From assembly GCA_038087875.1 (NCBI GenBank), contig CM075991.1, positions 7,194,001-7,258,000 on the forward strand: a stretch of 64,000 bases of DNA, given 5' to 3'. The number at the start of each line of letters is the position of its first letter. Position 1 is the first letter of the stretch. Below are positions 1 through 52,384 of this stretch, in pieces. The stretch is from Malacoraja senta (taxonomy: Eukaryota). The notes under the pieces were generated by a model that saw only the letters and a list, made by a program, of their open reading frames with translations, was not told where the DNA came from and ran no database searches. The translations under genes were made by a program, and so were the position numbers.

Positions 1-3000
1 CAACGCAATGGAAGTCAAAATAAGGTTTTTTCCCACCTACAGGTGGGTCACTTGCTACAGTGCCGACTATAGACACTGTAGCCTCACTTTTTTAGTTTTT
101 TTTTTATTACATAAAATCACTTGTTTGTGTTTTGTGTTTAGTGATAAGAATAATATGGACATACCAACAAAAGTTAATAATTCAAAAACTCCCCCAATAC
201 CTAAAGACGTGGGATATGGACGCACCACAAGATTCAAAGGTACTATAATTATTCAAAATGCATGACACCACACAAAAGAACCTAGGAGGAGTCTCATTTT
301 GTAGTTGGAATATAAGAGGTATTAATGAACCTATCAAAAGGGGTAAGATATTAGCTCAGCTAAAAATGTATAATTCTGACATTACCTTCCTACAAGAAAC
401 ACACCTAAAACCTCAGGACCAAGTTAGGCTGAGGGCGAAATGGATAGGTCAAACATACCACTCTTCATTCACTTCAAAATCTAGAGGCACGTCAATTATC
501 ATAAGAAAAGGTATACCATTTAAAGCAAAGAATATTATAACAGATATAGAAGGGAGATACCTAATAGTTAATGGAGAAATCCATGACACTCCACTTACTT
601 TGGTAAATATATATGCCCCTAACTTTGATAACCCCCACTTTTTCAATAAAATCTTCAATATAATTGCAGAGTCAAACTATCAAAATGTTATAATAGGCGG
701 AGACTTTAATTGTGTTTTAGACCCGTACTTAGATAAATCAAGTCAAAAACAGAGAGGGAATATGAAATCGAAAACTGGGGAACTCCTCAATACCTACATA
801 AACAACACTAATATAGCAGATGTTTGGAGAATTGTGAATCCAACTGGCAGGGAATATTCGTTTTACTCAATGGTACATAAGACATACTCACGTATAGACT
901 ACTTTCTGCTGGATACAAAATTAATCCCCCAAACATCTAATGCAATATATCATACAAATTCAATTTCAGACCATTCTCCACTAACTTTCTTTTTAAAACT
1001 GGAAGGATTGTCTAAGAATAATTCATTCTGGAGATTTAACTCTCAAATTTTAAAAGATCCACAAGCGAGTATATATTTAAAAGAACAAATGGAGGTCTTT
1101 TTTCAAACAAATGATACTTCAGATATATCGCCTACTTTACTTTGGGAATCTTTTAAAGCATACATTAGGGGTATTATAATTTCATATCAAGCTTTTCAAA
1201 ATAAAAAGAATAAGAATGAACAAAGACAGTTAGAAGAACTTATTAGACAAATGGATATAGATAATGCTAAAGATCCAACAATAGATAAACATAATAAAAT
1301 AATAATTTTAAAATTTAAATTAAATAAATTATTATCTGCCAAACTTATAAGACTTTTTCAAATTACAAAACAAGAGCACTTTGAATTTGGGGATAAACCG
1401 CATAAACTTTTGGCTCGCCAGCTAAAAAAACGAGAAAAGGAACATACTATACCAAAGATCAAATCAGATAAAGGGGAATTATTAACAACACCGAAGGATA
1501 TTAATAAAAGATTTGCGCAATTTTACGAGAATTTGTATACATCTAAAACGATAATTGATTCCAATAATATCACAAAGTTCTTGGATACCTGTAATCTTCC
1601 AAAGTTAGAGCTGAAGGAACAAGAGGAACTGGGTGCACAAATCTCAATTAAGGAATTAGAAGATACAATAAACTCACTAAAAAATGGAAAAACACCAGGC
1701 CCTGATGGATTTACTAATGAATTTTATAAAAACTTTTATGATAAAATAATACCAAGATTACAAAAAATGTACCAATACGCTTTTAAAAAACGAATACTAC
1801 CTGATACATTAGCGGAATCAACGATTACATTAATACCTAAGAAAAATAAGGATTTAGAAGAACCTGGCTCATATAGAGCTATAGCATTGTTAAACACAGA
1901 TCAAAAAATATTAGCGAAAACATTAGCCAGAAGATTAAGTAAATACATTAGTAAATTAATAAACCCAGATCAGACAGGGTTTATCCCTAAGAGATACTCT
2001 TCTAATAATATGAGACGTCTACTCAACATAATGCACTCACACAAATCTGAAGATCAAGAATTATCAATTATTTCGCTGGATGCTGAAAAAGCATTTGATC
2101 AAGTAGAATGGAATTATATGGATAAAGTATTACAAAAATTTCAACTGGGAGAGAATTTTATTTTATGGATTAAGTTACTATATAACAAACCTACAGCTAG
2201 AATACTTACTAATAACATATTATCCTCGAAATTTCAACTATCAAGGGGAAATAGACAAGGATGCTCATTATCACCACAGCTGTTTGCTCTCATTATTGAA
2301 CCGCTAGCAGGAAAAATTAGAATACACCCTGATATTCATGGATATAATACTAAAGACTCATATAATAAAATATCTTTATACGCGGATGATATATTATTGT
2401 ATATTACAAAACCTCAAATCACTATACCAAATATATTAAATTTAATTGAAGACTTCGGATCTTTTTCTGGATATAGAATAAATTGGAATAAAAGTGAAAT
2501 TATGTCAATAAAACCGAAAGATTCAACACATCTTTTAAAATTCCCTTTTAAAATAGCTACAGAAAAATTTAAATATTTGGGAATCGAAATTACCAGAGCA
2601 TATCAAGGTATGCTCAGGGCAAATTTTGACCCCCTACTTAATAAACTGAATACATTAATTAAATTCTGGAAAACGCTTCCGATGTCTTTAATAGGCCGAA
2701 TAAACGCAATAAAAATGATCTTTTTACCACAAATTTTATACCTATTTCAATCAATTCCTATATACTTACCTAAGAAGTTTTTTAAAAAACTCGACTCAGA
2801 TATCACTAATTTTATATGGGACTATAAATCACATAGAATACAAAAAACCCATCTGAATAAATCTAAAGTATTGGGGGGTCTAGCACTACCCAATTTTATG
2901 TATTATTATTGGTCAGTAAATATTAAAAACATGATTCAACTGATGGATAACTCCGCCCAGCAAGTAGACTGGATTGTAATGGAGAAAGAGGATTGCTCCT

Positions 3001-4466
3001 CTAGAAACATTGGAGCGATCCTCCTCTCTCCAATGAAATTGAATAACATAAACTATAATAAGAACCCAATTATTCATAGTACAATCCGTATTTGGAAACA
3101 AATAAAACAAAATTTAAAATTAAGAAACTTATCACTTTTATTACCTATAGTCAATAACCCTTCGTTTAGTCCTTCTATTATAGATAAAGCTTATACACAA
3201 TGGGATAGACTAGGAATTAAAACGCTTGGTGACTTGTATGAAACTGGAAAATTACTTTCATTTCAACAATTACAAATAAAATATAAACTCGGAAATAATC
3301 AATATTTTAAATACTTTCAAATATGCGACTATTTGAAAAAATATATAAAAGATCATCATAATAACCCAGCAGATGTACTGGACGAGGCAATGCAGACAAA
3401 AGCGGAATCAGCAAACTTAATATCATATTTGTACAATATTATCTTAAATGTACAAATACCATCTACGGAGGGTATCAGAAGAGACTGGGAACAAGAGTTA
3501 GCTATTAAAATTTCAAAGGAAAGTTGGAATGAATACTTATTAAAAGTACATAAATGCTCGATTAATGTAAGACACACTTTAATACAATTTAAAATTTTAC
3601 ATAGATTATATTATTCGAAAACTAAAATTCATAAAATTTTCCCAAACGTATCATCTATTTGTGATAAATGTCAATCCCAAGAAGCAACTATAGCGCACTC
3701 ATTTGTCTTCTGTACAAAAATTCAAAAATTTTGGAATGAAATTTTTGAAATCTTTACAAAGTTATTTAAAACAAGACTGATACCCAAAGCAGAATGGATT
3801 ATCTTCGGAATAACGGAAGATGATCCAGAACTAAATGTGTTTCAAAAGAAATTAATGGATTATGGGTTAATAACTGGAAAAAAGCTAATTCTAAAATTTT
3901 GGAAGAAGGCTCCAATACCAACTATAAATATGTGGATTTCAAATATGTTTGAAACACTACACCTTGAAGAGATAAGACTCCTCCTAGCAGGTAAACCAGA
4001 TCACTTCCACCTGACGTGGTCTGCATTTATAGAATTATTACAAACATAGGGTGCAAAAGTACTTTAAAAAAATAAAAAATTGAGGTCGGGTAAGGGGGGA
4101 TGATAGTTGAAGAGTTGGTATGTCCTATTTACGTGATGCTCAAAAAAAAACATTTGTTTTTCTTTTTTTCTCTCTCTCTTTTCTTTTCTTAGGGCCTATT
4201 TCTTAACTCTTTTTCTTTTTGTTTTTAATTTCGCTCTCATAGGGTCCTCGTCCTTTTTTTTTGTTGTTACATTTTCTACACTTTTCTACACTTGCACTTT
4301 TTCCTTCACTTTCTTCTCTCTTTCAATCTTTTCTTTCTTTAGTGTAAAAAAAATAAATAAAGGGAGTACATTAATTGTAAGAAGATATAAATGACGAGTA
4401 TTAATGTATGTGGCTGTGATGTAATGTACTTCTAATAAATAAAAATTAAAAAAAAAAAAAAAAAAA
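1..4466 (+). mobile_element. L1 retrotransposon (upstream spacer, ORF2, T-rich 3'UTR, poly(A)); 5' part lies outside the window
   Basis: ORF2 followed by ~400 nt 3'UTR, AATAAA-type signals near 4433-4443 and A-tail to 4466; 3'UTR recurs at 26511-26899 and 45437-45790. Confidence 0.93.
258..4049 (+). CDS. L1-clade LINE ORF2 (APE endonuclease, reverse transcriptase, C-terminal zinc knuckle), uninterrupted 1263 aa
   Basis: APE motifs SWNIRG, LQETH, GGDFN, SRIDY, SDH; RT motifs PGPDGF, SLDAEKAFD, RQGC, LYADD, YLG; C-terminal CDKC-x8-H-x4-C. Confidence 0.96.
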   Translation: MHDTTQKNLGGVSFCSWNIRGINEPIKRGKILAQLKMYNSDITFLQETHLKPQDQVRLRAKWIGQTYHSSFTSKSRGTSIIIRKGIPFKAKNIITDIEGRYLIVNGEIHDTPLTLVNIYAPNFDNPHFFNKIFNIIAESNYQNVIIGGDFNCVLDPYLDKSSQKQRGNMKSKTGELLNTYINNTNIADVWRIVNPTGREYSFYSMVHKTYSRIDYFLLDTKLIPQTSNAIYHTNSISDHSPLTFFLKLEGLSKNNSFWRFNSQILKDPQASIYLKEQMEVFFQTNDTSDISPTLLWESFKAYIRGIIISYQAFQNKKNKNEQRQLEELIRQMDIDNAKDPTIDKHNKIIILKFKLNKLLSAKLIRLFQITKQEHFEFGDKPHKLLARQLKKREKEHTIPKIKSDKGELLTTPKDINKRFAQFYENLYTSKTIIDSNNITKFLDTCNLPKLELKEQEELGAQISIKELEDTINSLKNGKTPGPDGFTNEFYKNFYDKIIPRLQKMYQYAFKKRILPDTLAESTITLIPKKNKDLEEPGSYRAIALLNTDQKILAKTLARRLSKYISKLINPDQTGFIPKRYSSNNMRRLLNIMHSHKSEDQELSIISLDAEKAFDQVEWNYMDKVLQKFQLGENFILWIKLLYNKPTARILTNNILSSKFQLSRGNRQGCSLSPQLFALIIEPLAGKIRIHPDIHGYNTKDSYNKISLYADDILLYITKPQITIPNILNLIEDFGSFSGYRINWNKSEIMSIKPKDSTHLLKFPFKIATEKFKYLGIEITRAYQGMLRANFDPLLNKLNTLIKFWKTLPMSLIGRINAIKMIFLPQILYLFQSIPIYLPKKFFKKLDSDITNFIWDYKSHRIQKTHLNKSKVLGGLALPNFMYYYWSVNIKNMIQLMDNSAQQVDWIVMEKEDCSSRNIGAILLSPMKLNNINYNKNPIIHSTIRIWKQIKQNLKLRNLSLLLPIVNNPSFSPSIIDKAYTQWDRLGIKTLGDLYETGKLLSFQQLQIKYKLGNNQYFKYFQICDYLKKYIKDHHNNPADVLDEAMQTKAESANLISYLYNIILNVQIPSTEGIRRDWEQELAIKISKESWNEYLLKVHKCSINVRHTLIQFKILHRLYYSKTKIHKIFPNVSSICDKCQSQEATIAHSFVFCTKIQKFWNEIFEIFTKLFKTRLIPKAEWIIFGITEDDPELNVFQKKLMDYGLITGKKLILKFWKKAPIPTINMWISNMFETLHLEEIRLLLAGKPDHFHLTWSAFIELLQT

Positions 4467-13349: not shown

Positions 13350-13787
13350 ATTTAGAATTTTAGAATGCTATTTATTGTCATTCAAACCTAGGCTTGAACG
13401 AAATATCGTTACTACAGGTCTTTTTTTTTTCTTTTTTTTACATTACAAAAAAACCCAAGACCCACACTTAACACAGTTTACATAAACATCCATCACAGTG
13501 AGTCTCCAACACCACCTCACTGTGATGGAAGGCACTGTGATGGAAGTCTTATCTCTTCCCTTTATTCTTCACCCGCGGTCCAGCAGTCCAACTGCAGCGT
13601 CTAGGCGAACTGGGGCTCCGGTGTTAAAGCCCCCGGCGGACGATGGTAAGTCCTGTGGCCATTTAGCCATGCCGGGCGATGTTAGGCCCTGGCTCCGTGT
13701 CCTTCAAACCCCGCGGTTCAAGCAGTCCAACCCGCAGTCCAACTGCAGCGTCTAGGCGAACTGGGGCTCCGATGCTAAAGCCCCCTG
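13350..13787 (-). mobile_element. Non-autonomous retroelement with AATAAA + microsatellite tail and an internal 52-bp direct repeat
   Basis: Shares tgtcatt..aacgaaat..catccatcaca..ctgtgatggaaggca with 45134-45327; gcagtccaactgcagcgtctaggcgaactggggctccg repeated at ~13583 and ~13734. Confidence 0.6.
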
Positions 13788-13789
13788 TA

Positions 13790-15560
13790 CCTTGTGTGGT
13801 ACCTTGTCGAAAGCCTTCTGAAAGTCCAGATACAACACATCCACTGGTTCTCCCCTATCCACTCTACTAGTTACATCCTCGAAAAATTCTATAAGATTCG
13901 TCAGACACGATTTACCTTTCGTAAATCCATGCTGACTTTGTTCAATGATTTCACCACTTTCCAAATGTGCTGTTATCCCATCTTTAATAACTGACTCTAG
14001 CAGTTTCCCCACTACCGATGTTAGACTAACTGGTCTGTAATTCCCCGTTTTCTCTCTCCCTCCCTTCTTAAAAAGTGGGGTTACGTTTGCTACCCTCCAA
14101 TCCTCAGGAACTACTCCAGAATCTAAAGAGTTTTGAAAAATTATCACTAATGCATCCACTATTTCTGGAGCTACTTCCTTAAGTACTCTGGGATGCAGCC
14201 TATCTGGCCCTGGTGATTTATCGGCCTTTAATCCATTCAATTTACCCAACACCACTTCCCGACTAACCTGGATTTCACTCAGTTCCTCCATCTCCTTTGA
14301 CCCGCGGCCCCCTGCTATTTCCGGCAGATTATTTATGTCTTCCTTAGTGAAGACGGAACCAAAGTAGTTATTCAATTGGTCCGCCATATCCTTGTTCCCC
14401 ATGATCAATTCACCTGTTTCTGACTGCAAGGGACCTACATTTGTTTTAACTAATCTCTTTCTCTTCACATATCTATAAAAACGTTTGCAGTCAGTTTTTA
14501 TGTTCCCTGCCAGTTTCCTTTCATAATCTATTTTCCCTTTCCTAATTAAGCCCTTTGTCCTCCTCTTCTGGTCTCTGAATTTCTCCCAGTCCTCTGGTAT
14601 GCTGCTTTTTCTGGCTAATTTGTACGCATCATCTTTTGCTTTGATACTATCCCTGATTTCCCTTGTTATCCACGGATGCACTACCTTCCCTGATTTATTC
14701 TTTTGCCAAACTGGGATGAACAATTTTTGTAGTTCATCCATGCAGTCTTTAAATGCCTTCCATTGCATATCCACCGTCAACCCTTTTAGAACTAATTGCT
14801 AGTCAATCTTGGCCAATTCACATCTCATACCCTCAAAGTTACCTTTCTTTAAATTCAGAACCATTGTTTCTGAATTAACAATGTCACTCTCCATCCTAAT
14901 GAAGAACTCAACCATATTATGGTCACCCTTGCCCAAGGGGGCACGCACAACAAGTCTGCTAACTAACCCTTCCTCATTACTCAATACCCAGTCTAGAATA
15001 GCCTGCTCTCTCGTTGGTTACTCTACATGTTAGTTTAGATAACTATCCCTCATACATTCCAAGAAATCCTCTTCCTCAGCACCCCTCCCAATTTGATTCA
15101 CCCAATCTATATGTAGATTGAAGTCACCCATTATAACTGTTTTGCCTTTGTTGCACGCATTTCTAATTTCCTGTTTGATGCCATCCCCAACTTCACTACT
15201 ACTGCTAGGTGGCCTGTACACAACACCCACCAGCGTTTTCTGCCCCTTAGTGTTTCGCAGCTTTACTAAATACCGATTCCACATCCTCCAAGCTAATGTC
15301 CTTCCGTCCCACTGCGTTAATCTCCTCTCTAACCAGCAACGCTACCCCACCTCCTTTTCCTTTCTCTCTATCCCTCCTGAATATTGAATATCCCTGGATG
15401 TTCAGCTCCCAGCCTTGGTCACCCTGGAGCCATGTCTCTGTGATCCCAACTATATCATAATCATTAATTGCTATCTGCACATTCAACTCATCCACCTTAT
15501 TACGAATGCTCCTTGCATTGAGACACAAAGCCTTCTGGCTTGTTTTTACAACGCTCTTAC
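13790..15560 (-). pseudogene. CR1 ORF2 (APE + N-terminal RT), disrupted
   Basis: LNARSIRNK, GITETWL, GGGVALLV, YRPP, MGDFN, GDHN, SPGPD, NYRPVSLTS, QHGF, YLDFQKAFDKVPH; frameshift near 15270 and stops at 15030 and 14799. Confidence 0.9.
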
Positions 15561-15845
15561 CCCTTATACAATTACGTTGAAAAGTGGCTCTTTTTGATTT
15601 TTGCCCTGGATTTGACTGCCTGCCACTTTTACTTTTCACCTTGCTACCTATTGCTTCCGCCCGCATTTTACACCCCTCTGTTTCTCTGCTCACCCATTTA
15701 AGAACCCCACCACCTCTTATTCTCTGTTTATTATTGTTTTCTTCTTCCCCCCCTACATGTTGGGTCTGAGTGCTTTCCTTCTCTGCCTCCTGCCTCACAC
15801 ACTGTCTAATAGCATTCTCTATTTGAGTCCCTCCCCCCAACCATT

Positions 15846-16808
15846 CTAGTTTAAAGTCTCCCCAGTAGCCTTTGCAGATCTCCCCGCCAGGATATCGGTC
15901 CCCCTCAGGTTCAAGTGCAACCCATCCTTTTTGTACAGGTCGAACCTTCCACAAAAGAGGTCCCAATGATCCAGAAATTTGAATCCCTGCCTTCTGCACC
16001 AGTCCTTCAGCCACGCATTTATCCTCCACCTCGCTCCATTCCTACTCTCACTGTCGCGTGGCACAGGCAGTAATCCCGAGATTGTTACCTTTGCTGTCCT
16101 TCTCTTTAACTCCCCTCCTAACTCCCTAAATTCTCCTTTCAGGACCTCTTCTCTTTTTTTACCTATGTCATTGGTACCTATATGTATCACGACCTCGGGC
16201 TCCTCTCCCTGCCCTTTCTGGATATCTTGGACACGTTGAGACACATCACAGACCCTGGCACCAGGGAGGCAAACTACCATCCGGGTCTCCCGACTGCGTC
16301 CACAGAATCGCCTGTCTGACCCCCTAACTATAGAGTCCCCTATTAGTATTGCCCTCCTCTTCTTTTCCTTACCCTTCTGAGCAACAGGACCAGTCTCTAT
16401 ACCGGAGGCCCAGCTGCTGTGTCTACCCCCAGGTAGGCTGTCCACCCCAACAGTGCTCAAACAGGAGTACTTATTGTCAAGGTGTACAGCCACCGGGGTA
16501 CTCTCTAGTCCCTGCCTGTGCCCCTTGCCTCTCCCAACCGTGATCCACTTGCCTGCCTCCGGTGGTGTTGGAGTGACCACATCCCTGTAACTCCTCTCAA
16601 TGACTTCCTCGCTCTCCCTGACCAGACGGAGGTCATCGAGCTGCTGCTCCAGGTTCCTAATACGGTCCATTAGGAGCCCCATCTCGATACACCTGCCGCA
16701 GATGTGGACGTCTGGAGGGCTATCAGACTCCATGACTTCCCACATCTGACATCCCGAACAGTAAACTGCCCTGGCCCTCATACTCCCCTTACCCTGGATA
16801 GAATACAA
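15846..16808 (-). CDS. CR1 ORF1: N-terminal zinc finger, coiled coil, SGNH esterase domain
   Basis: CSGC..HICGRC; LIGDSIVRG, VIHIGTND, DGLHLN. Confidence 0.88.
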   Translation of the reverse strand: MYSIQGKGSMRARAVYCSGCQMWEVMESDSPPDVHICGRCIEMGLLMDRIRNLEQQLDDLRLVRESEEVIERSYRDVVTPTPPEAGKWITVGRGKGHRQGLESTPVAVHLDNKYSCLSTVGVDSLPGGRHSSWASGIETGPVAQKGKEKKRRAILIGDSIVRGSDRRFCGRSRETRMVVCLPGARVCDVSQRVQDIQKGQGEEPEVVIHIGTNDIGKKREEVLKGEFRELGGELKRRTAKVTISGLLPVPRDSESRNGARWRINAWLKDWCRRQGFKFLDHWDLFCGRFDLYKKDGLHLNLRGTDILAGRSAKATGETLN

Positions 16809-16948
16809 AACAAACTGCTACAATACAGTACAATCAGCAGGGATCTGACTCCCAATCAGCTGCTCCCTCTTGTCTGCTTCCACCAATCAGCGGCTTCCTC
16901 AAACCCACTTGTTTGTGAAGTGGAACTTGGAACGTTGCAGATTTCGGT

Positions 16949-45793: not shown

Positions 45794-46597
45794 ATGCCCA
45801 AATCCCCGATTCTCTTCGCACACGTGCGTCCTGACCCGCTAAGTGTTTCCAGTACAACTCTGTTTTTGTTACTGGGTTTCCAGCGATTGCAGCTTTTTGA
45901 TTTTCTCGAAGTTTCCAGTGTTTCACAAGCTGCTGACAGAATAATTTTCAGAATATCGATATCTCTCGACCTGCGAGTTGAGTTGAAAGAAAAATCTTCA
46001 AACCTTTGAAAACAATCAACAACAACACTCCACAAGCAATCCCGCACATTGAATCTGGCTCCAGGAAACTTTCATCTCTGGAGATGAAACAGCCTATCCA
46101 AAAACCTATAGAGTTTAATGCTGAACTACAAAGTCAATGATTATGAACAGTAGAGCAACATGGCCTGCTGACTGACTGTTCGCGAAAGGAATCTTGTAAC
46201 TGTGAGGAAACGATTATTTTTAATTAAAATTTTGATTGTCGTGTACCTGAGTGAGCCAACAGGATATGAAAAGCTAACGATAGCAAAAGAACACTTGACC
46301 TGCATAAAGCTTCCTGCTCTGACCTTCCCAGAGTGGTGCACAACTGTGCTTCAAACCTTCACAAAGCCTCTCACTTGCTCCGAGCTTGATAGGTAGCAAA
46401 GACTTTAGGATCTGAAGATTTGGATGCCTGTGAGATAAATAATTCACCCACCCCCAAGCTAGCAGAGTGGAAAGAGCTGAAAAAGAAGTAGAATAAAAAG
46501 TAAGCACAGGGAAAGAATGGCTTAATGTATCGAGGAGGGGATCAGTATCTTTGCTGGTGTGAGGAATCAAAGCATTCAGACTTTAGATTTTAGACTT

Positions 46598-46764
46598 CTT
46601 CTTCCTCGTGACCGGCCATCTTCTATATCACGTCTTTCCGGTCGGTCAGTGACGGTTGACGGTCGGTGGTTGCAGAATTGGCTACTTCAGTCAGTCACTG
46701 TGGTACAGTTTCTGTCGTCAGCATTGCCCGGGATGCGCCACGTGGAGGCTTCTGCTTGCATCCC
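46598..46764 (-). mobile_element. Ribozyme-headed short retroposon, family B
   Basis: Inserted in a V-SINE tail, flanked by agattttagactt (46585-46597) and agatttttagactt (46765-46778); 3' tail cacgaggaagaagaag. Confidence 0.82.
46672..46764 (-). ncRNA. HDV-like self-cleaving ribozyme (genomic-HDV-like architecture)
   Basis: P1 GGGAUGC/GCAUCCC, P2 GCAGAA/UUCUGC, P3 GCC/GGC, L3 UCCACGU, P1.1 CC/GG, J1.1/4 GCAA, P4 UGCU/AGUA, J4/2 GCCAA. Confidence 0.88.
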
Positions 46765-47072
46765 AGATTTTTAGACTTTAGAGATACAGCACGGAAACAG
46801 GCCCTTCAGTTTGAGCTGACCAGTGATTACTCCTTACACTAACACTATCCTACACGTTAGGGATAATTTACAATCCACAGAAGCCAATTAACCTACAAAC
46901 CTACACGTCTTTGGAGTGCGGGAATACACCGGAGCACCCGGAAAAAACCTACGCAGATCACGGGGAGAACATACAAAATCCGTACAGACAGCACCCGCAG
47001 TCAGAAATGAACCCAAAAAGATCTCCTGCGCTGTAAGGCAAGAGCTCTACTGCTGCGCCACCATGCTGCCCG
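46765..47072 (-). mobile_element. V-SINE (HE1-like)
   Basis: Head, V-domain, tail; tail microsatellite continues to ~46577. Confidence 0.82.
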
Positions 47073-47752
47073 CTCAGCTCTTGAGTAGAAAACATTTGTG
47101 ATTTTTATCACTGAGATCATTTTCCCAGGAGGAACATTTTCCAGGAGGTGACCAATTTAATTCTCCCAAATGGACGTAGATCTGGAAATGCAAAAGGGAA
47201 TATGTTTGATTTGAAAAACAGGAAACCTGGTGAGCCTATTTTTGGCTGGAAGCTTGTTTCTTGTGGAACTCAATATCATTTGATTTCTCTGAGCACAACC
47301 TAAATAAAGCCAATACATTATGTATGCCTGTAGTTCCCAGTCACACTCCTGGAAGAAGTCAGTTATTTTGTGCTGTCAAGAGATTTTATGAACCTCCATA
47401 AAGAAAGGCGTTAGGACATGGAGAAAACATAAAACGAGAATGTTATTTACTGCCGAAGGAAATCGTTGAATCTCCACTGTATTTCTTCCAGTTTCGTGTG
47501 GAGATACAGCATGGAAACAGGCCCTTCGGCCCACCGAGCCCACTCTGACCATCAGTCGCCCTTGTTCGCACTAGTTCCCTGTTATCCCACTTTCGCAGCC
47601 ACTCCCTACCGATTAGGGATCGGTTTACAGCGGCCCAATTAACCTACAAACCCGCACGTTTTTGGAGTGTGGGAGGAAACGGGAGTATGCGGAGGAAACC
47701 CACGCAGGTCGCGGTGAGAAGGTTCAAACTCCACGCATCCGTACCCGAGGTT

Positions 47753-47891: not shown

Positions 47892-48638
47892 GTACCCGAG
47901 GTCAGGATCGAACCCGGGTCTCTAGCGCTGTGAGACAGCAGCTCCACCAGCTGCACCACTGGACTGCCTAAGTCATTTTTTTTTAAGATCACTTGTACGT
48001 CAATTTGTTTGAAACTGCACCGTCTGCAATCAGTTCATTCCAAGAGTTCTGGAAGATTGATATTGTGCTATCTTGATGCCAATTTTGATGTTAGGCTGCA
48101 GAAAACTAATGAATATACAGGCGGAATGAGATTTAGTGGACATGATTTGTGGACTTAGATCCTGCTGACTTTCACCACAGGATTTCCAGGCAGTACACGG
48201 TCTCGCCTTGCACTGTGACCAGCAGTTTGGACTAAGACAAATTAGACTCATTAGTTATATATTTCACGCAAAGCTACAACTTGAAGAGTAACAAATTCTC
48301 TAATTGCCATGGTGATGATGGTGCAGATTAATTTAAATTAGTAAAACTGATAATAATGGTCTGTAGAATAAATTTAAATCTGCACACACTTTTCAAATGT
48401 TATTGCTCACAGTGACCACAAGTAGAAGTATTGAGTTTGAAGAAGGGCCCTGACACAAAACATCACCTATCCATTTTCTGCAGAAATGCTGCCTGACCCG
48501 CTGCGTTACTCCAGCATTTTTCGTCGATCTATGGGATAAAACATCATCTTTTTTGTTACTTAAGAATTCTTACCATTTTATCTCCAAAGTTCAAGACAAA
48601 TTCTGAGGGTGTAACCATTTTCAAGCTTGTTTGTTTTT

Positions 48639-48645
48639 TGTGTGT

Positions 48646-48718
<73 letters not shown>

Positions 48719-49179
48719 TGTGTGTGTGTGTGTGTGTGTGTACGTGTGTGTGTGTGTGTGTGTACGTGTGTGTGTGTGTGTGTGTGTGTACGTGTGTGTG
48801 TGTGTGTGTGTGTACGTGTGTGTGTGTGTGTGTGTACGTGTGTGTGTGTACGTGTGTGTGAGTGTGTGTACGTGTGTGTGTGTGTGTGTGTGTGTGTACG
48901 TGTGTGTGTGTACGTGTGTGTGTGTGTGTACGTGTGTGTGTGTACGTGTGTGTGTGTGTACGTGTGTGTGTGTGTGTGTACGTGTGTGTGTGTACGTGTG
49001 TGTGTGTGTACGTGTGTGTGTGTGTGTGTACGTGTGTGTGTGTGTGTGTGTACGTGTGTGTGTGTGTACGTGTGTGTGTGTGTGTACGTGTGTGTGTGTG
49101 TGTGTGTACGTGTGTGTGTGTGTGTGTGTGTGTGTACGTGTGTGTGTGTGTGTGTGTACGTGTGTGTGTGTGTGTGTGT

Positions 49180-49256
<77 letters not shown>

Positions 49257-49317
49257 TGTGTGTGTGTGTGTGTGTGTGTACGTGTGTGTGTGTACGTGTG
49301 TGTGTGTGTGTGTGTAC

Positions 49318-49348
<31 letters not shown>

Positions 49349-49365
49349 TGTGTGTGTGTACGTGT

Positions 49366-49454
<89 letters not shown>

Positions 49455-49469
49455 TGTGTGTGTGTGTGT

Positions 49470-49524
<55 letters not shown>

Positions 49525-49565
49525 TGTGTGTGTGTGTGTGTGTGTGTGTACGTGTGTGTGTGTGT

Positions 49566-49628
<63 letters not shown>

Positions 49629-49875
49629 TGTGTGTGTGTACGTGTGTGTGTGTGTGCGTGTGTGTGTGTGTGTGTACGTGTGTGTGTGTACGTGTGTGTG
49701 TGTGTACGTGTGTGTGTGTGTGTGTACGTGTGTGTGTGTGTGTGTGTACGTGTGTGTGTGTGTACGTGTGTGTGTGTGTGTGTACGTGTGTGTGTGTGTG
49801 TGTGTACGTGTGTGTGTGTGTGTGTGTGTGTGTACGTGTGTGTGTGTGTGTGTGTACGTGTGTGTGTGTGTGTGT

Positions 49876-49956
<81 letters not shown>

Positions 49957-49977
49957 TGTGTGTGTGTGTGTGTGTGT

Positions 49978-50046
<69 letters not shown>

Positions 50047-50087
50047 TGTGTGTGTGTGTGTGTGTGTACGTGTGTGTGTGTGTGTAC

Positions 50088-50118
<31 letters not shown>

Positions 50119-50187
50119 TGTGTGTGTGTGTGTGTGTACGTGTGTGTGTGTGTGTGTGTGTGTACGTGTGTGTGTGTGTGTGTGTGT

Positions 50188-50242
<55 letters not shown>

Positions 50243-50261
50243 TGTGTGTGTGTGTGTGTGT

Positions 50262-50300
<39 letters not shown>

Positions 50301-50347
50301 TGTGTGTGTGTGTGTGTGTGTGTGTACGTGTGTGTGTGTGTGTGTGT

Positions 50348-50416
<69 letters not shown>

Positions 50417-50461
50417 TGTGTGTGTGTGTGTGTGTACGTGTGTGTGTGTGTGTGTGTGTGT

Positions 50462-50496
<35 letters not shown>

Positions 50497-50547
50497 TGTG
50501 TGTGTGTGTGTGTGTGTACGTGTGTGTGTGTGTGTACGTGTGTGTGT

Positions 50548-50586
<39 letters not shown>

Positions 50587-50699
50587 TGTGTGTGTGTGTG
50601 TGTGTACGTGTGTGTGTGTGTGTGTGTGTGTGTACGTGTGTGTGTGTGTGTGTGTGTACGTGTGTGTGTGTGTGTGTGTACGTGTGTGTGTGTACGTGT

Positions 50700-50736
<37 letters not shown>

Positions 50737-50799
50737 TGTGTGTGTGTGTGTGTGTACGTGTGTGTGTGTGTGTGTGTACGTGTGTGTGTGTGTGTGTGT

Positions 50800-50844
<45 letters not shown>

Positions 50845-50852
50845 TGTGTGTG
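48639..50852. repeat. 2.2-kb compound microsatellite (TG)n punctuated by TACG
   Basis: Direct inspection; roughly 85 TACG interruptions by hand count and about 6 GAG interruptions. Confidence 0.97.
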
Positions 50853-50971
50853 AGTACACAGTGAACTTTTGTTTCTCATTTATTATATTGTTTCCAGTGT
50901 ACTATGTTTACACATTCTGTTGTGCTGCTGCAAGTAAGTATGTCATTGCTCTATCTGGGACATATGACAAT
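50853..50971 (+). mobile_element. Rex1-type 3' tail, continuing at 51737-51758 after a CR1 insertion
   Basis: ctgttgtgctgctgcaagtaag..gggacatatgacaata | aaacactcttgactcttga. Confidence 0.72.
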
Positions 50972-51736
50972 AGAAACATAGAAACATAGAAAATAGGTGC
51001 AGGACTAGGCCATTCGGCCCTTCGAGCCTGCACCGCCATTTGATATGATCATGGCTGATCATCCAACTCAGTATCCCGTACCTGCCTTCTCTCCATACCC
51101 CCTGATCACTTTAGCCACAAGGGCCACATCTAACTCCCTCTGAAATATAGCCAATGAACTGACCTCAACTACTTTCTGTGGCAGAGAATTCCACAGATTC
51201 ACCACTCTCTGTGTAAAAAATGATTTCCTCATCTCGGTCCTAAAAGTCTTCCCTCTTATCCTTAAATTGTGACCCCTAGTTCTGGACTTCTCCAACATCG
51301 GGAATAATCTTCCTGCATCTAGCCTGTCCAACCCCTTAAGAATTTTGTAAGTTTCTATAAGATCTCCCGTCAGTCTTCTGAATTCCAACGTGTACAAGCC
51401 GAGTGTATCCAGTCTTTCCTCAGATGAAAGTCCTGCCATCCCAGGAATCAGTCTGGTGAACCTTCTCTGTAATCCCTCTATGGCAAGAATGTCTTTCCTC
51501 AGATTAGGAGACCAAAACTGTACGCAATACTCCAGGTGTGGTCTCACCAAGACCCTGTACAACTGCAGTAGAACCTCCCTGCTCTTATACTCAAATCCTT
51601 TTGCTATGAATGCTAACATACCATTCGCTTTCTTCACTGCCTGCTGCACCTGCATGCCTACTTTCAATGACCGGTGTACCATGACACCCAGGTCTCGTTG
51701 CATCACCCCTTTTCCTAATCGGCCACCATTCAGATA
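50972..51736 (-). mobile_element. CR1 3' fragment (ORF2 C-terminus in frame) with (tatgtttc)n tail
   Basis: RDLGV..KKANGMLAFI..LYRVLVRPHLEYCVQFWSP..GDLIETYK..WNSLP. Confidence 0.93.
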
Positions 51737-52384
51737 ATAAAACACTCTTGACTCTTGAAGTTGAGTACCTATGTGCCTGCAACCTTGTGTCACACTCTTC
51801 CACTTAAGTTCTTCCTACCCCTGTTCTTGATAAAATGTTAAAAAACAGAACTTGGATTCTTGATAGATAATCTTGATTCTGGTGTCTGATCGGAGGGGGT
51901 TAAATAACTTAGAAACAAAAGAACTGCGGATGCCTGCTTAATACTCAAAAGGGCACAAAGCACTGGAGCAACTCAGCGGGTCAGGCAGCTTCTCTGGAGA
52001 ACATGGATAGGTGACGTTTCGGGTCGAGACTCCTTTCCAGAATAACTTGCCATGAGTTCTAAATGTTAACTCCACTCCAGTGAGTAGATGGTTGAGATAC
52101 TTCGACCTTGTCAGAGAATCGGTGATCTGGAAATTTGATTGCATAGACCTGCTTATTTTGATTGCATAGACCTGCAATTGTGAAAACACAATTAGGATCT
52201 AGTGAAATGTTGTTATAACCATTTCTGGGTCATTTTCTGCACAGTCAACCGCACGGTGCAGTGTGATTCACGTTTGTCTATCGGATGTGGTTTTCGACAG
52301 GCACAGTGAGCCTATTCTCTGTGTAATGCTCTTTTCCAAAGCCTTGTAGGGTCACCTTAAGCCAGTTGTCCAGGGAGCTACTGT

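Follow-up and report, generated by a model that had tools for sequence, protein, structure and literature searches.

What is a 167-nt element that carries no coding capacity and begins with what reads as an intact HDV-like ribozyme, and which machinery would spread it? The element lies on the minus strand of the window, by which we mean the whole 64,000-nt stretch of the Malacoraja senta genome analysed here. An earlier note, made from the sequence alone, had described it as a SINE-like retroposon (family B) whose 5' end is set by the ribozyme and whose partner would be a LINE of the Vingi or Ingi type. Its parts and immediate surroundings are given below, nucleotides of the element being counted from G1 (position 46764).

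46598–46764, minus strand: whole element, read as a bipartite non-autonomous LINE (family B), 167 nt
46672–46764, minus strand: HDV-like ribozyme, 93 nt, with predicted cleavage 5' of G 46764 (descriptor, Rfam match at E-value level, pair count)
46758–46764, minus strand: 5' strand of P1, pairing with 46736–46730 (7 of 7)
46750–46755, minus strand: 5' strand of P2, pairing with 46677–46672 (6 of 6)
46737–46749, minus strand: P3 (3 bp) and L3 (7 nt), the latter with U19 and G24
46728–46729, minus strand: G37 and G36, pairing as P1.1 with C20 and C21 of L3 (pair count)
46683–46723, minus strand: P4 (4 bp) with an inserted hairpin (pair count and predicted fold)
46678–46682, minus strand: J4/2, with the equivalent of the catalytic C at 46681 (pair count, 8-family alignment)
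46643–46671, minus strand: linker after the ribozyme, 29 nt, no match to the 3' end of the parent
46598–46642, minus strand: 3' part, derived from the end of a Vingi-like LINE (final codons and stop, 3' UTR, (GAA)n tail; L135 matches these 45 nt at 93%)
46765–46778, minus strand: 5' copy of the target-site duplication, 14 nt (read from the sequence)
46585–46597, minus strand: 3' copy of the target-site duplication, 13 nt (read from the sequence)
46765–47075, minus strand: host repeat, a SINE of ~300 nt, with many copies in the window at 67–84%

The ribozyme fold in the window

The minus strand from 46764 to 46672 reads as the earlier note gave it, and the five helices proposed there (P1, P1.1, P2, P3 and P4) all pair, with 22 of 22 standard pairs. 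P1 has 7 bp, all Watson–Crick (nt 1–7 with 29–35), in which G1, the guanosine at +1, pairs with C35 and there is no wobble. P2 has 6 bp (nt 10–15 with 88–93), P3 has 3 bp (nt 16–18 with 26–28), P1.1 has 2 bp (C20–G37 and C21–G36) and P4 has 4 bp including one G–U (nt 42–45 with 79–82). The U and G expected in L3 are retained (U19, G24), J4/2 reads G83-C84-C85-A86-A87, and the equivalent of C75 is nt 84, at 46681, where it had been placed. The likeness of the GG-GCAA junction to genomic HDV is borne out by the RF00094 match, in which G-G-G-C-A-A and P3/L3 align.

Our own HDV descriptor found this site only, in two registers, on both strands of the 64 kb, and gave one match across six shuffled windows. 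At the Rfam gathering score there was no match anywhere in the window. At the E-value level the element matched HDV_ribozyme (RF00094) with 26.3 bits (cut-off 50), CPEB3_ribozyme (RF00622) with 25.1 bits (cut-off 35; E 0.00029, the best) and HDV-F-prausnitzii (RF02682) with 24.8 bits (cut-off 44). The modelled fold suggests that the element works like the HDV-type ribozymes of Rfam, yet it falls under all three gathering scores.

An energy fold calculated without pseudoknots recovers P1, P3 and P4 at z = −1.5, which is weak, and predicts the inner hairpin within P4. It also pairs nt 37–39 with nt 83–85, which occupies the catalytic C, and the upstream flank of the window copy can displace P1. 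Given these two alternatives, the window copy may cleave slowly; self-cleavage itself, 5' of G1, is predicted from the fold.

There is one copy of the element in the window, inserted in the same orientation in the tail of the host SINE, which we take to be an HE1-type V-SINE of cartilaginous fish. The two copies of its target-site duplication (46778–46765 and 46597–46585) differ by one A and adjoin G1. Taken alone this duplication is weak, since it sits in the short-repeat tail of another repeat, and the point is carried by the other copies of the element. Neither the descriptor nor a blast search with families X, Y and P (see below) found a second HDV-like element in the window.

Elsewhere in the window, an uninterrupted frame of 1266 aa (249–4049, plus strand) resembles by eye the endonuclease–reverse transcriptase ORF2 of an L1-type LINE and is probably a young copy, as its frame is uninterrupted. 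Broken pieces of CR1/L2-type LINEs, again judged by eye, lie on the minus strand at 13752–16817, with an esterase-like ORF1 at 15846–16817, and at 51068–51814. Positions ~48600–50900 hold a 2.3-kb simple repeat of the (GT)n type with periodic variants.

Copies, ends and insertion sites

In the 1.94 Gb of genome searched, all 40 scored matches to the element were 97–100% identical to it, and the 18-nt ribozyme core, allowing at most 1 mismatch, had 304 matches (control, 0). When each half of the element was searched separately, all of the 30 loci fetched per half were copies of the element. The element is 167 nt long and non-coding, with many dispersed copies, target duplications and a simple-repeat tail.

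The 89 fetched loci comprise 61 distinct insertions, and these share a 5' boundary: 50 start at nt 1, that is at G1, six at nt 2–3, and five are truncated. A target duplication was called in 56 of the 61, five of these calls being spurious internal matches, as against five of 61 in the control. The window copy is among the spurious calls, as its two repeats differ by that one A. Duplications were 10–13 nt long in 42 of the 56. The earlier note had placed the predicted cleavage site at the edge of the duplication. The duplication abuts G1 in the window copy, and in 28 insertions it ends exactly before G1; in 14 it runs 1–4 nt into the element and in seven it stops 1–3 nt short.

Two further observations concern these insertions. 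The base before G1 is T in 35 of the 50 full-length copies (p 2e-9, assuming a 29% background), which, as read from the sequences, may reflect a preference at the target site or at the second nick. Two copies (L035 and L040) are without the last ~20 nt of the element and run into other repeats, probably through later insertions.

All 22 pairs and the four core bases are intact in 37 of 63 aligned copies. After nine truncated or duplicate rows were set aside, the remaining 54 copies diverged from their majority sequence by 1.3%, with CpG sites changing fastest. The aligned copies are the top matches, so that the age of the family is biased low and it may be older on average. Outside CpG, changes per site were 0.011 in stems, 0.008 at other ribozyme sites and 0.012 in the tail. 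Stems are not spared among these copies, and no information comes from covariation inside the family. Such a pattern is expected of copies that decay neutrally once inserted, and it lends the ribozyme no support.

Near-identical elements occur in sequencing runs with eight organism labels, through either common descent of close species or horizontal spread. Contigs built from two of the DNA runs contain copies with 8–15 differences and the same ends. There was no RNA run among the listed sequencing runs that contain the element. Family B is a real, young, ribozyme-headed bipartite retroposon, its cleavage being predicted.

The parent LINE and its ribozyme-headed relatives

A genome search with the CPEB3 ribozyme model listed 60 places, 39 of them above the cut-off, and 20 were fetched. 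They include family X (L091/L110), a 3.1-kb LINE in which the ribozyme comes first and is followed by one frame of ~1000 aa with an APE-type endonuclease at its N-terminus and a reverse transcriptase; it ends in a (GAA)n tail and is flanked by a duplication of 11–12 nt. Among 12 upstream stretches fetched with the X endonuclease, nine carry a whole or decayed ribozyme, one only its 3' part and two none. Besides the parent family (P, below), five Vingi-like LINE families in the genome, X included, begin with the same fold; a ribozyme heads six or more LINE families here, as well as two short ones.

Some of these relatives deserve separate mention. The ribozyme at the 5' ends of family U (L115, L117, L119, L122) is the nearest to that of family B among the other families (83% over 42 nt), with the same P3, two P1.1 pairs, a long P4 and an ATG a few bases behind it. 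Family Y (L105–L109) is ~175 nt long, with a minimal HDV-like fold that has no P4, a (GAA)n end and a duplication; its 3' part is common to another Vingi-like LINE (3' ends L127 and L128). It may be the 'family A' of the earlier note, and it is absent from the window. One X copy (L100, G000:C8:937210-937790) has at its 5' end at least four tandem 26-nt repeats of the ribozyme front, perhaps through repeated template jumps.

The earlier note had envisaged an autonomous LINE with both ends of the element, and family P (L135/L138/L139/L141) is such a family, each end coming from a different copy. Among 14 3' ends fetched with the C-terminal region of family X, L135, located behind a match to the reverse transcriptase region, matches the last 45 nt of the element (nt 123–167) at 93% (E 1e-15), and L138 does likewise. 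The junction of the 5' and 3' parts thus lies near nt 123. The reading frame in the element ends in R-K-D-V-I-stop and that of the parent in W-K-D-x-I-stop; 86 of 120 database homologues of a sister family end in W-x(2,4)-I/V/L. Family P has at least 40 copies at 90–100%; a pattern made for its 3' end had one genome match.

For the 5' end, one 5'-truncated P copy joins the 3' end L138 to an endonuclease, L139, which lies 2.95 kb away and holds a stop. L139 has three genome matches: itself, one behind another repeat and one at C5841, the last being 92% identical to it. Upstream of the C5841 endonuclease, nt 1–18 of the element are matched at 16 of 18 positions, with a chance of about 4e-6 at that place, and the ribozyme would start 191 nt upstream of the homologous codon, vs 227 nt in family X. 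The 5' end of the parent is thus known from 18 nt in one copy, the two ends are linked through two copies, and family P has been read in pieces, with no copy seen end to end and none intact. Two further parent copies (L137, L140) are 5'-truncated and have no ribozyme. On C1–C3, 58 of the 304 ribozyme-core places were compared with the 40 listed 3' ends of the parent, and no pair lay 8 kb or less apart. The 150 rows of a genome-wide Pfam endonuclease search came from many LINE families and gave no pointer to the partner.

Since both ends trace to one LINE family, the sequences indicate a non-autonomous, bipartite LINE (SIDE) that arose by internal deletion, and not a SINE; the SINE-like label of the earlier note should be dropped. 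What that note had said of its nature otherwise agrees with the shared LINE ends and the starts at G1: the retroposon is non-autonomous, and its 5' end coincides with the site where cleavage is predicted. The 29-nt linker is probably the remainder of the 5' part of the parent.

It is possible, if doubtful, that the element descends from family P but owes the spread of its recent copies to family X, the youngest of the Vingi-like LINEs observed. This possibility bears on the driver alone and is compatible with the parentage given above. The sampled copies of family B are as little diverged as stated, and X copies are 96–99.6% alike; the X copy read has a late stop, and in two others the frame stays open over 1008 and 1014 aa. 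The 3' ends of family P are 90–97% alike, and only three copies of its endonuclease were found, L139 with a stop. The 7 nt that precede the tail are the same in family X and the element, and X has a duplication of 11–12 nt. However, the youth of family B is that of its top matches, and the contigs from the two DNA runs show a wider spread. Beyond the terminal motif, moreover, the 3' ends of B and X are not significantly alike, 855 of 1000 shuffles scoring as high.

Conservation of the fold among families

In an alignment of eight families, 97.5% of cells are paired in P2, P3 and one P1.1 pair, and five of the 10 pairs counted change on both sides (four of six in P2). Values this high were reached by 0–1 of 500 shuffles, and slid registers gave 34–50% paired. 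P1 and P4 were left out of the count, P1 because the length of J1/2 differs; P1 pairs in the individual parses. Five of the eight rows had been found with a ribozyme model, which biases the test, whereas families V and U were found by protein homology. C84, A86 and A87 are invariant in all eight families. The stem-covariation test suggested in the earlier note gives nothing inside family B, where neutral decay prevails, and succeeds across the eight families only.

This bears on what sets the 5' end. An internal promoter or a start at G1 could do so, with the pseudoknot slow or vestigial and kept as a 5' shield or protein-binding site. The element was presumed promoterless in the earlier note. 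In L1Tc and NARTc, promoter and ribozyme occupy the same 5' 77 nt (PMC3383444, PMC4035085), some well-folded SIDER ribozymes were reported to be inactive (PMC4035085), and here the energy fold and the upstream flank offer alternative pairings. We nevertheless regard this explanation as unlikely: the catalytic C and both As of J4/2 do not vary, the stems covary and insertion starts fall on G1. A promoter and a ribozyme, moreover, need not exclude each other.

The clade of the partner LINE

Vingi elements have one ORF, of 993 aa in the case described (PMC3708506), have no RNase H and are sister to Ingi (PMC13708176). Pfam matched no RNase H in the 813-aa frame of one X copy, and this copy ends ~230 nt beyond the frame; for family P, only the 2.95-kb span speaks for its absence. 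The X query matches a 22-member Anolis cluster at 51% over its whole length, and that Anolis protein shows 40% identity to the P endonuclease across 111 aa. The label leans also on what we take to be Vingi motifs at the N-terminus and the 3' end. The partner LINE would accordingly be Vingi-type by architecture, Anolis cluster and motifs, and in this sense the earlier suggestion of a Vingi/Ingi-type partner stands, with family P sharing both ends of the element and having a Vingi-like architecture.

If the partner belonged instead to the RTE or Ingi clade, a ribozyme would already be on record for it. RTE elements likewise have one ORF, and none of the matches in the databases, the PDB, the ESM Atlas or the cluster names is labelled Vingi. 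Still, a 3.1-kb element with one frame of ~1000 aa and no RNase H match is what Vingi would give, the anole is a known Vingi host and both X and P find their match there; we therefore hold an RTE or Ingi partner to be very unlikely.

A possible donor of the CPEB3 ribozyme

The top genome matches to the model of the mammalian CPEB3 ribozyme (L090–L104) are 5' ends of Vingi-like LINEs of families X, W and T, and they fit the consensus in the stems as well as in the core. Sister families score up to 64 bits (cut-off 35). When eight loci were compared with all of Rfam, CPEB3_ribozyme was the only match at E <=0.01, and six of the eight passed, with 37–59.7 bits, these six having been picked by the CPEB3 model in the first place; the families found without that model (B, U and V) score 23–29 bits. 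The likeness of the scanned loci covers stem letters and part of P4. Separately, family Z (L101, L103), known here without a linked ORF, is CPEB3-like in P4 too.

Whether CPEB3 acquired its ribozyme by domestication of a Vingi 5' end is, on these data, an evenly balanced question. Convergence is possible, since the R2 and HDV ribozymes have 21 of 27 core bases in common (PMC8256844). Vingi traces are recorded in the human genome as X12_LINE (PMC5753468). Domestication of the CPEB3 ribozyme has been proposed, though only in a general way (PMC7761336). In the accessible parts of three other papers, no donor is named (PMC10919898, PMC6765202) and the strings 'origin', 'transpos' and 'retro' do not occur (PMC8233481); in the literature searched we found no paper that names one. 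If the proposal is true, a memory-linked ribozyme acquires a named donor, for which the sister families are concrete and testable candidates, and gene-writing RNAs based on Vingi may cut themselves where their native 5' UTR is retained.

A model for mobilization

The element is very probably some 122 nt of the 5' end of a Vingi-type LINE joined to its last 45 nt, cut out by its ribozyme and mobilised in trans. A copy would be transcribed inside a longer transcript of the host or of a neighbour, its first 93 nt would fold as an HDV-like double pseudoknot, a fold that sequence and covariation support, and cleavage 5' of G1 would release an RNA of 167 nt whose 5' end is fixed and structured. The endonuclease–reverse transcriptase of a Vingi-like LINE would bind this RNA at its 3' end, (GAA)n tail included, and copy it in trans into a staggered nick by target-primed reverse transcription, a step suggested by the observed 3' homology and duplications. 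With an RNA this short most insertions would be full length and start at G1, and since they mostly do start there, a new copy could be cut out again wherever it is transcribed. Only its size would speak for an ordinary SINE with a tRNA or 5S head, or for a fold that arose by chance, and both readings have next to no probability: the two ends trace to a LINE, there was no tRNA call and no such Rfam match, and four simple patterns revealed neither an A box nor a B box. A strict SINE with a tRNA, 5S or 7SL head and a pol III promoter was rejected on the same grounds.

Comparison with known systems

The ribozyme-headed design, which the earlier note had ascribed to known non-LTR elements, has indeed been described in R2, L1Tc and Ingi. 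Among the LINE clades that have been listed as ribozyme-bearing, Vingi does not figure in the part available to us (PMC5786205), and the main text of a 2026 ribozyme preprint has neither Vingi nor shark. A review that covers the development of the anole Vingi-1 for RNA-based gene insertion with native UTRs mentions ribozymes, in its accessible part, only for R2 (PMC13708176). The literature searched held no report of a Vingi ribozyme, although patents, Repbase or Dfam could hold one. HDV-like ribozymes of lamprey and lancelet are on record (PMC8256844).

Among individual systems, the R2 SIDE and the R2/R1 hybrid SIDE of Drosophila consist of an HDV-like ribozyme and a LINE 3' end (PMC3414825). 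Like the R2 SIDE, the element has its 5' ribozyme joined to a LINE 3' end through an internal deletion and would be moved in trans. R2, however, is specific for a site in rDNA and its SIDEs are rare, whereas the element is dispersed in ~300 copies, has an APE-type parent and lives in a vertebrate. NARTc and RIME, the partners of which are L1Tc and ingi, likewise have a ribozyme at their exact 5' ends and dispersed insertions (PMC4035085, PMC3383444). L1Tc duplications measure 11–12 nt and those of the element mostly 10–13 nt, and Ingi is the sister clade of Vingi; but NARTc and RIME belong to trypanosomes, and Ingi has an RNase H, for which family X gave no match. Bipartite Vingi derivatives with 5' and 3' ends and no ORF, such as those of Vingi-1_EE, are known (PMC5786205), and the element resembles them.

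With the CPEB3 ribozyme (RF00622) the element shares a P2 that is identical to the model consensus on both strands. It differs in its 25 bits, two P1.1 pairs, HDV-like P3/L3 and longer P4, and the CPEB3 ribozyme exists as one conserved copy in an intron whereas family B is a retroposon. With genomic HDV (RF00094) it aligns in P3/L3 and the junction, yet it scores 26 bits against a cut-off of 50 and is part of a retroposon, while HDV is a circular satellite RNA. The kind of element is thus known, and its clade, its vertebrate host and the CPEB3 link may be new. Ribozyme-defined 5' ends would extend to the Vingi clade and to a vertebrate genome, and the element offers, in only 167 nt, a minimal natural template for a retrotransposon of the Vingi type, sufficient for ~300 insertions that are mostly full length.
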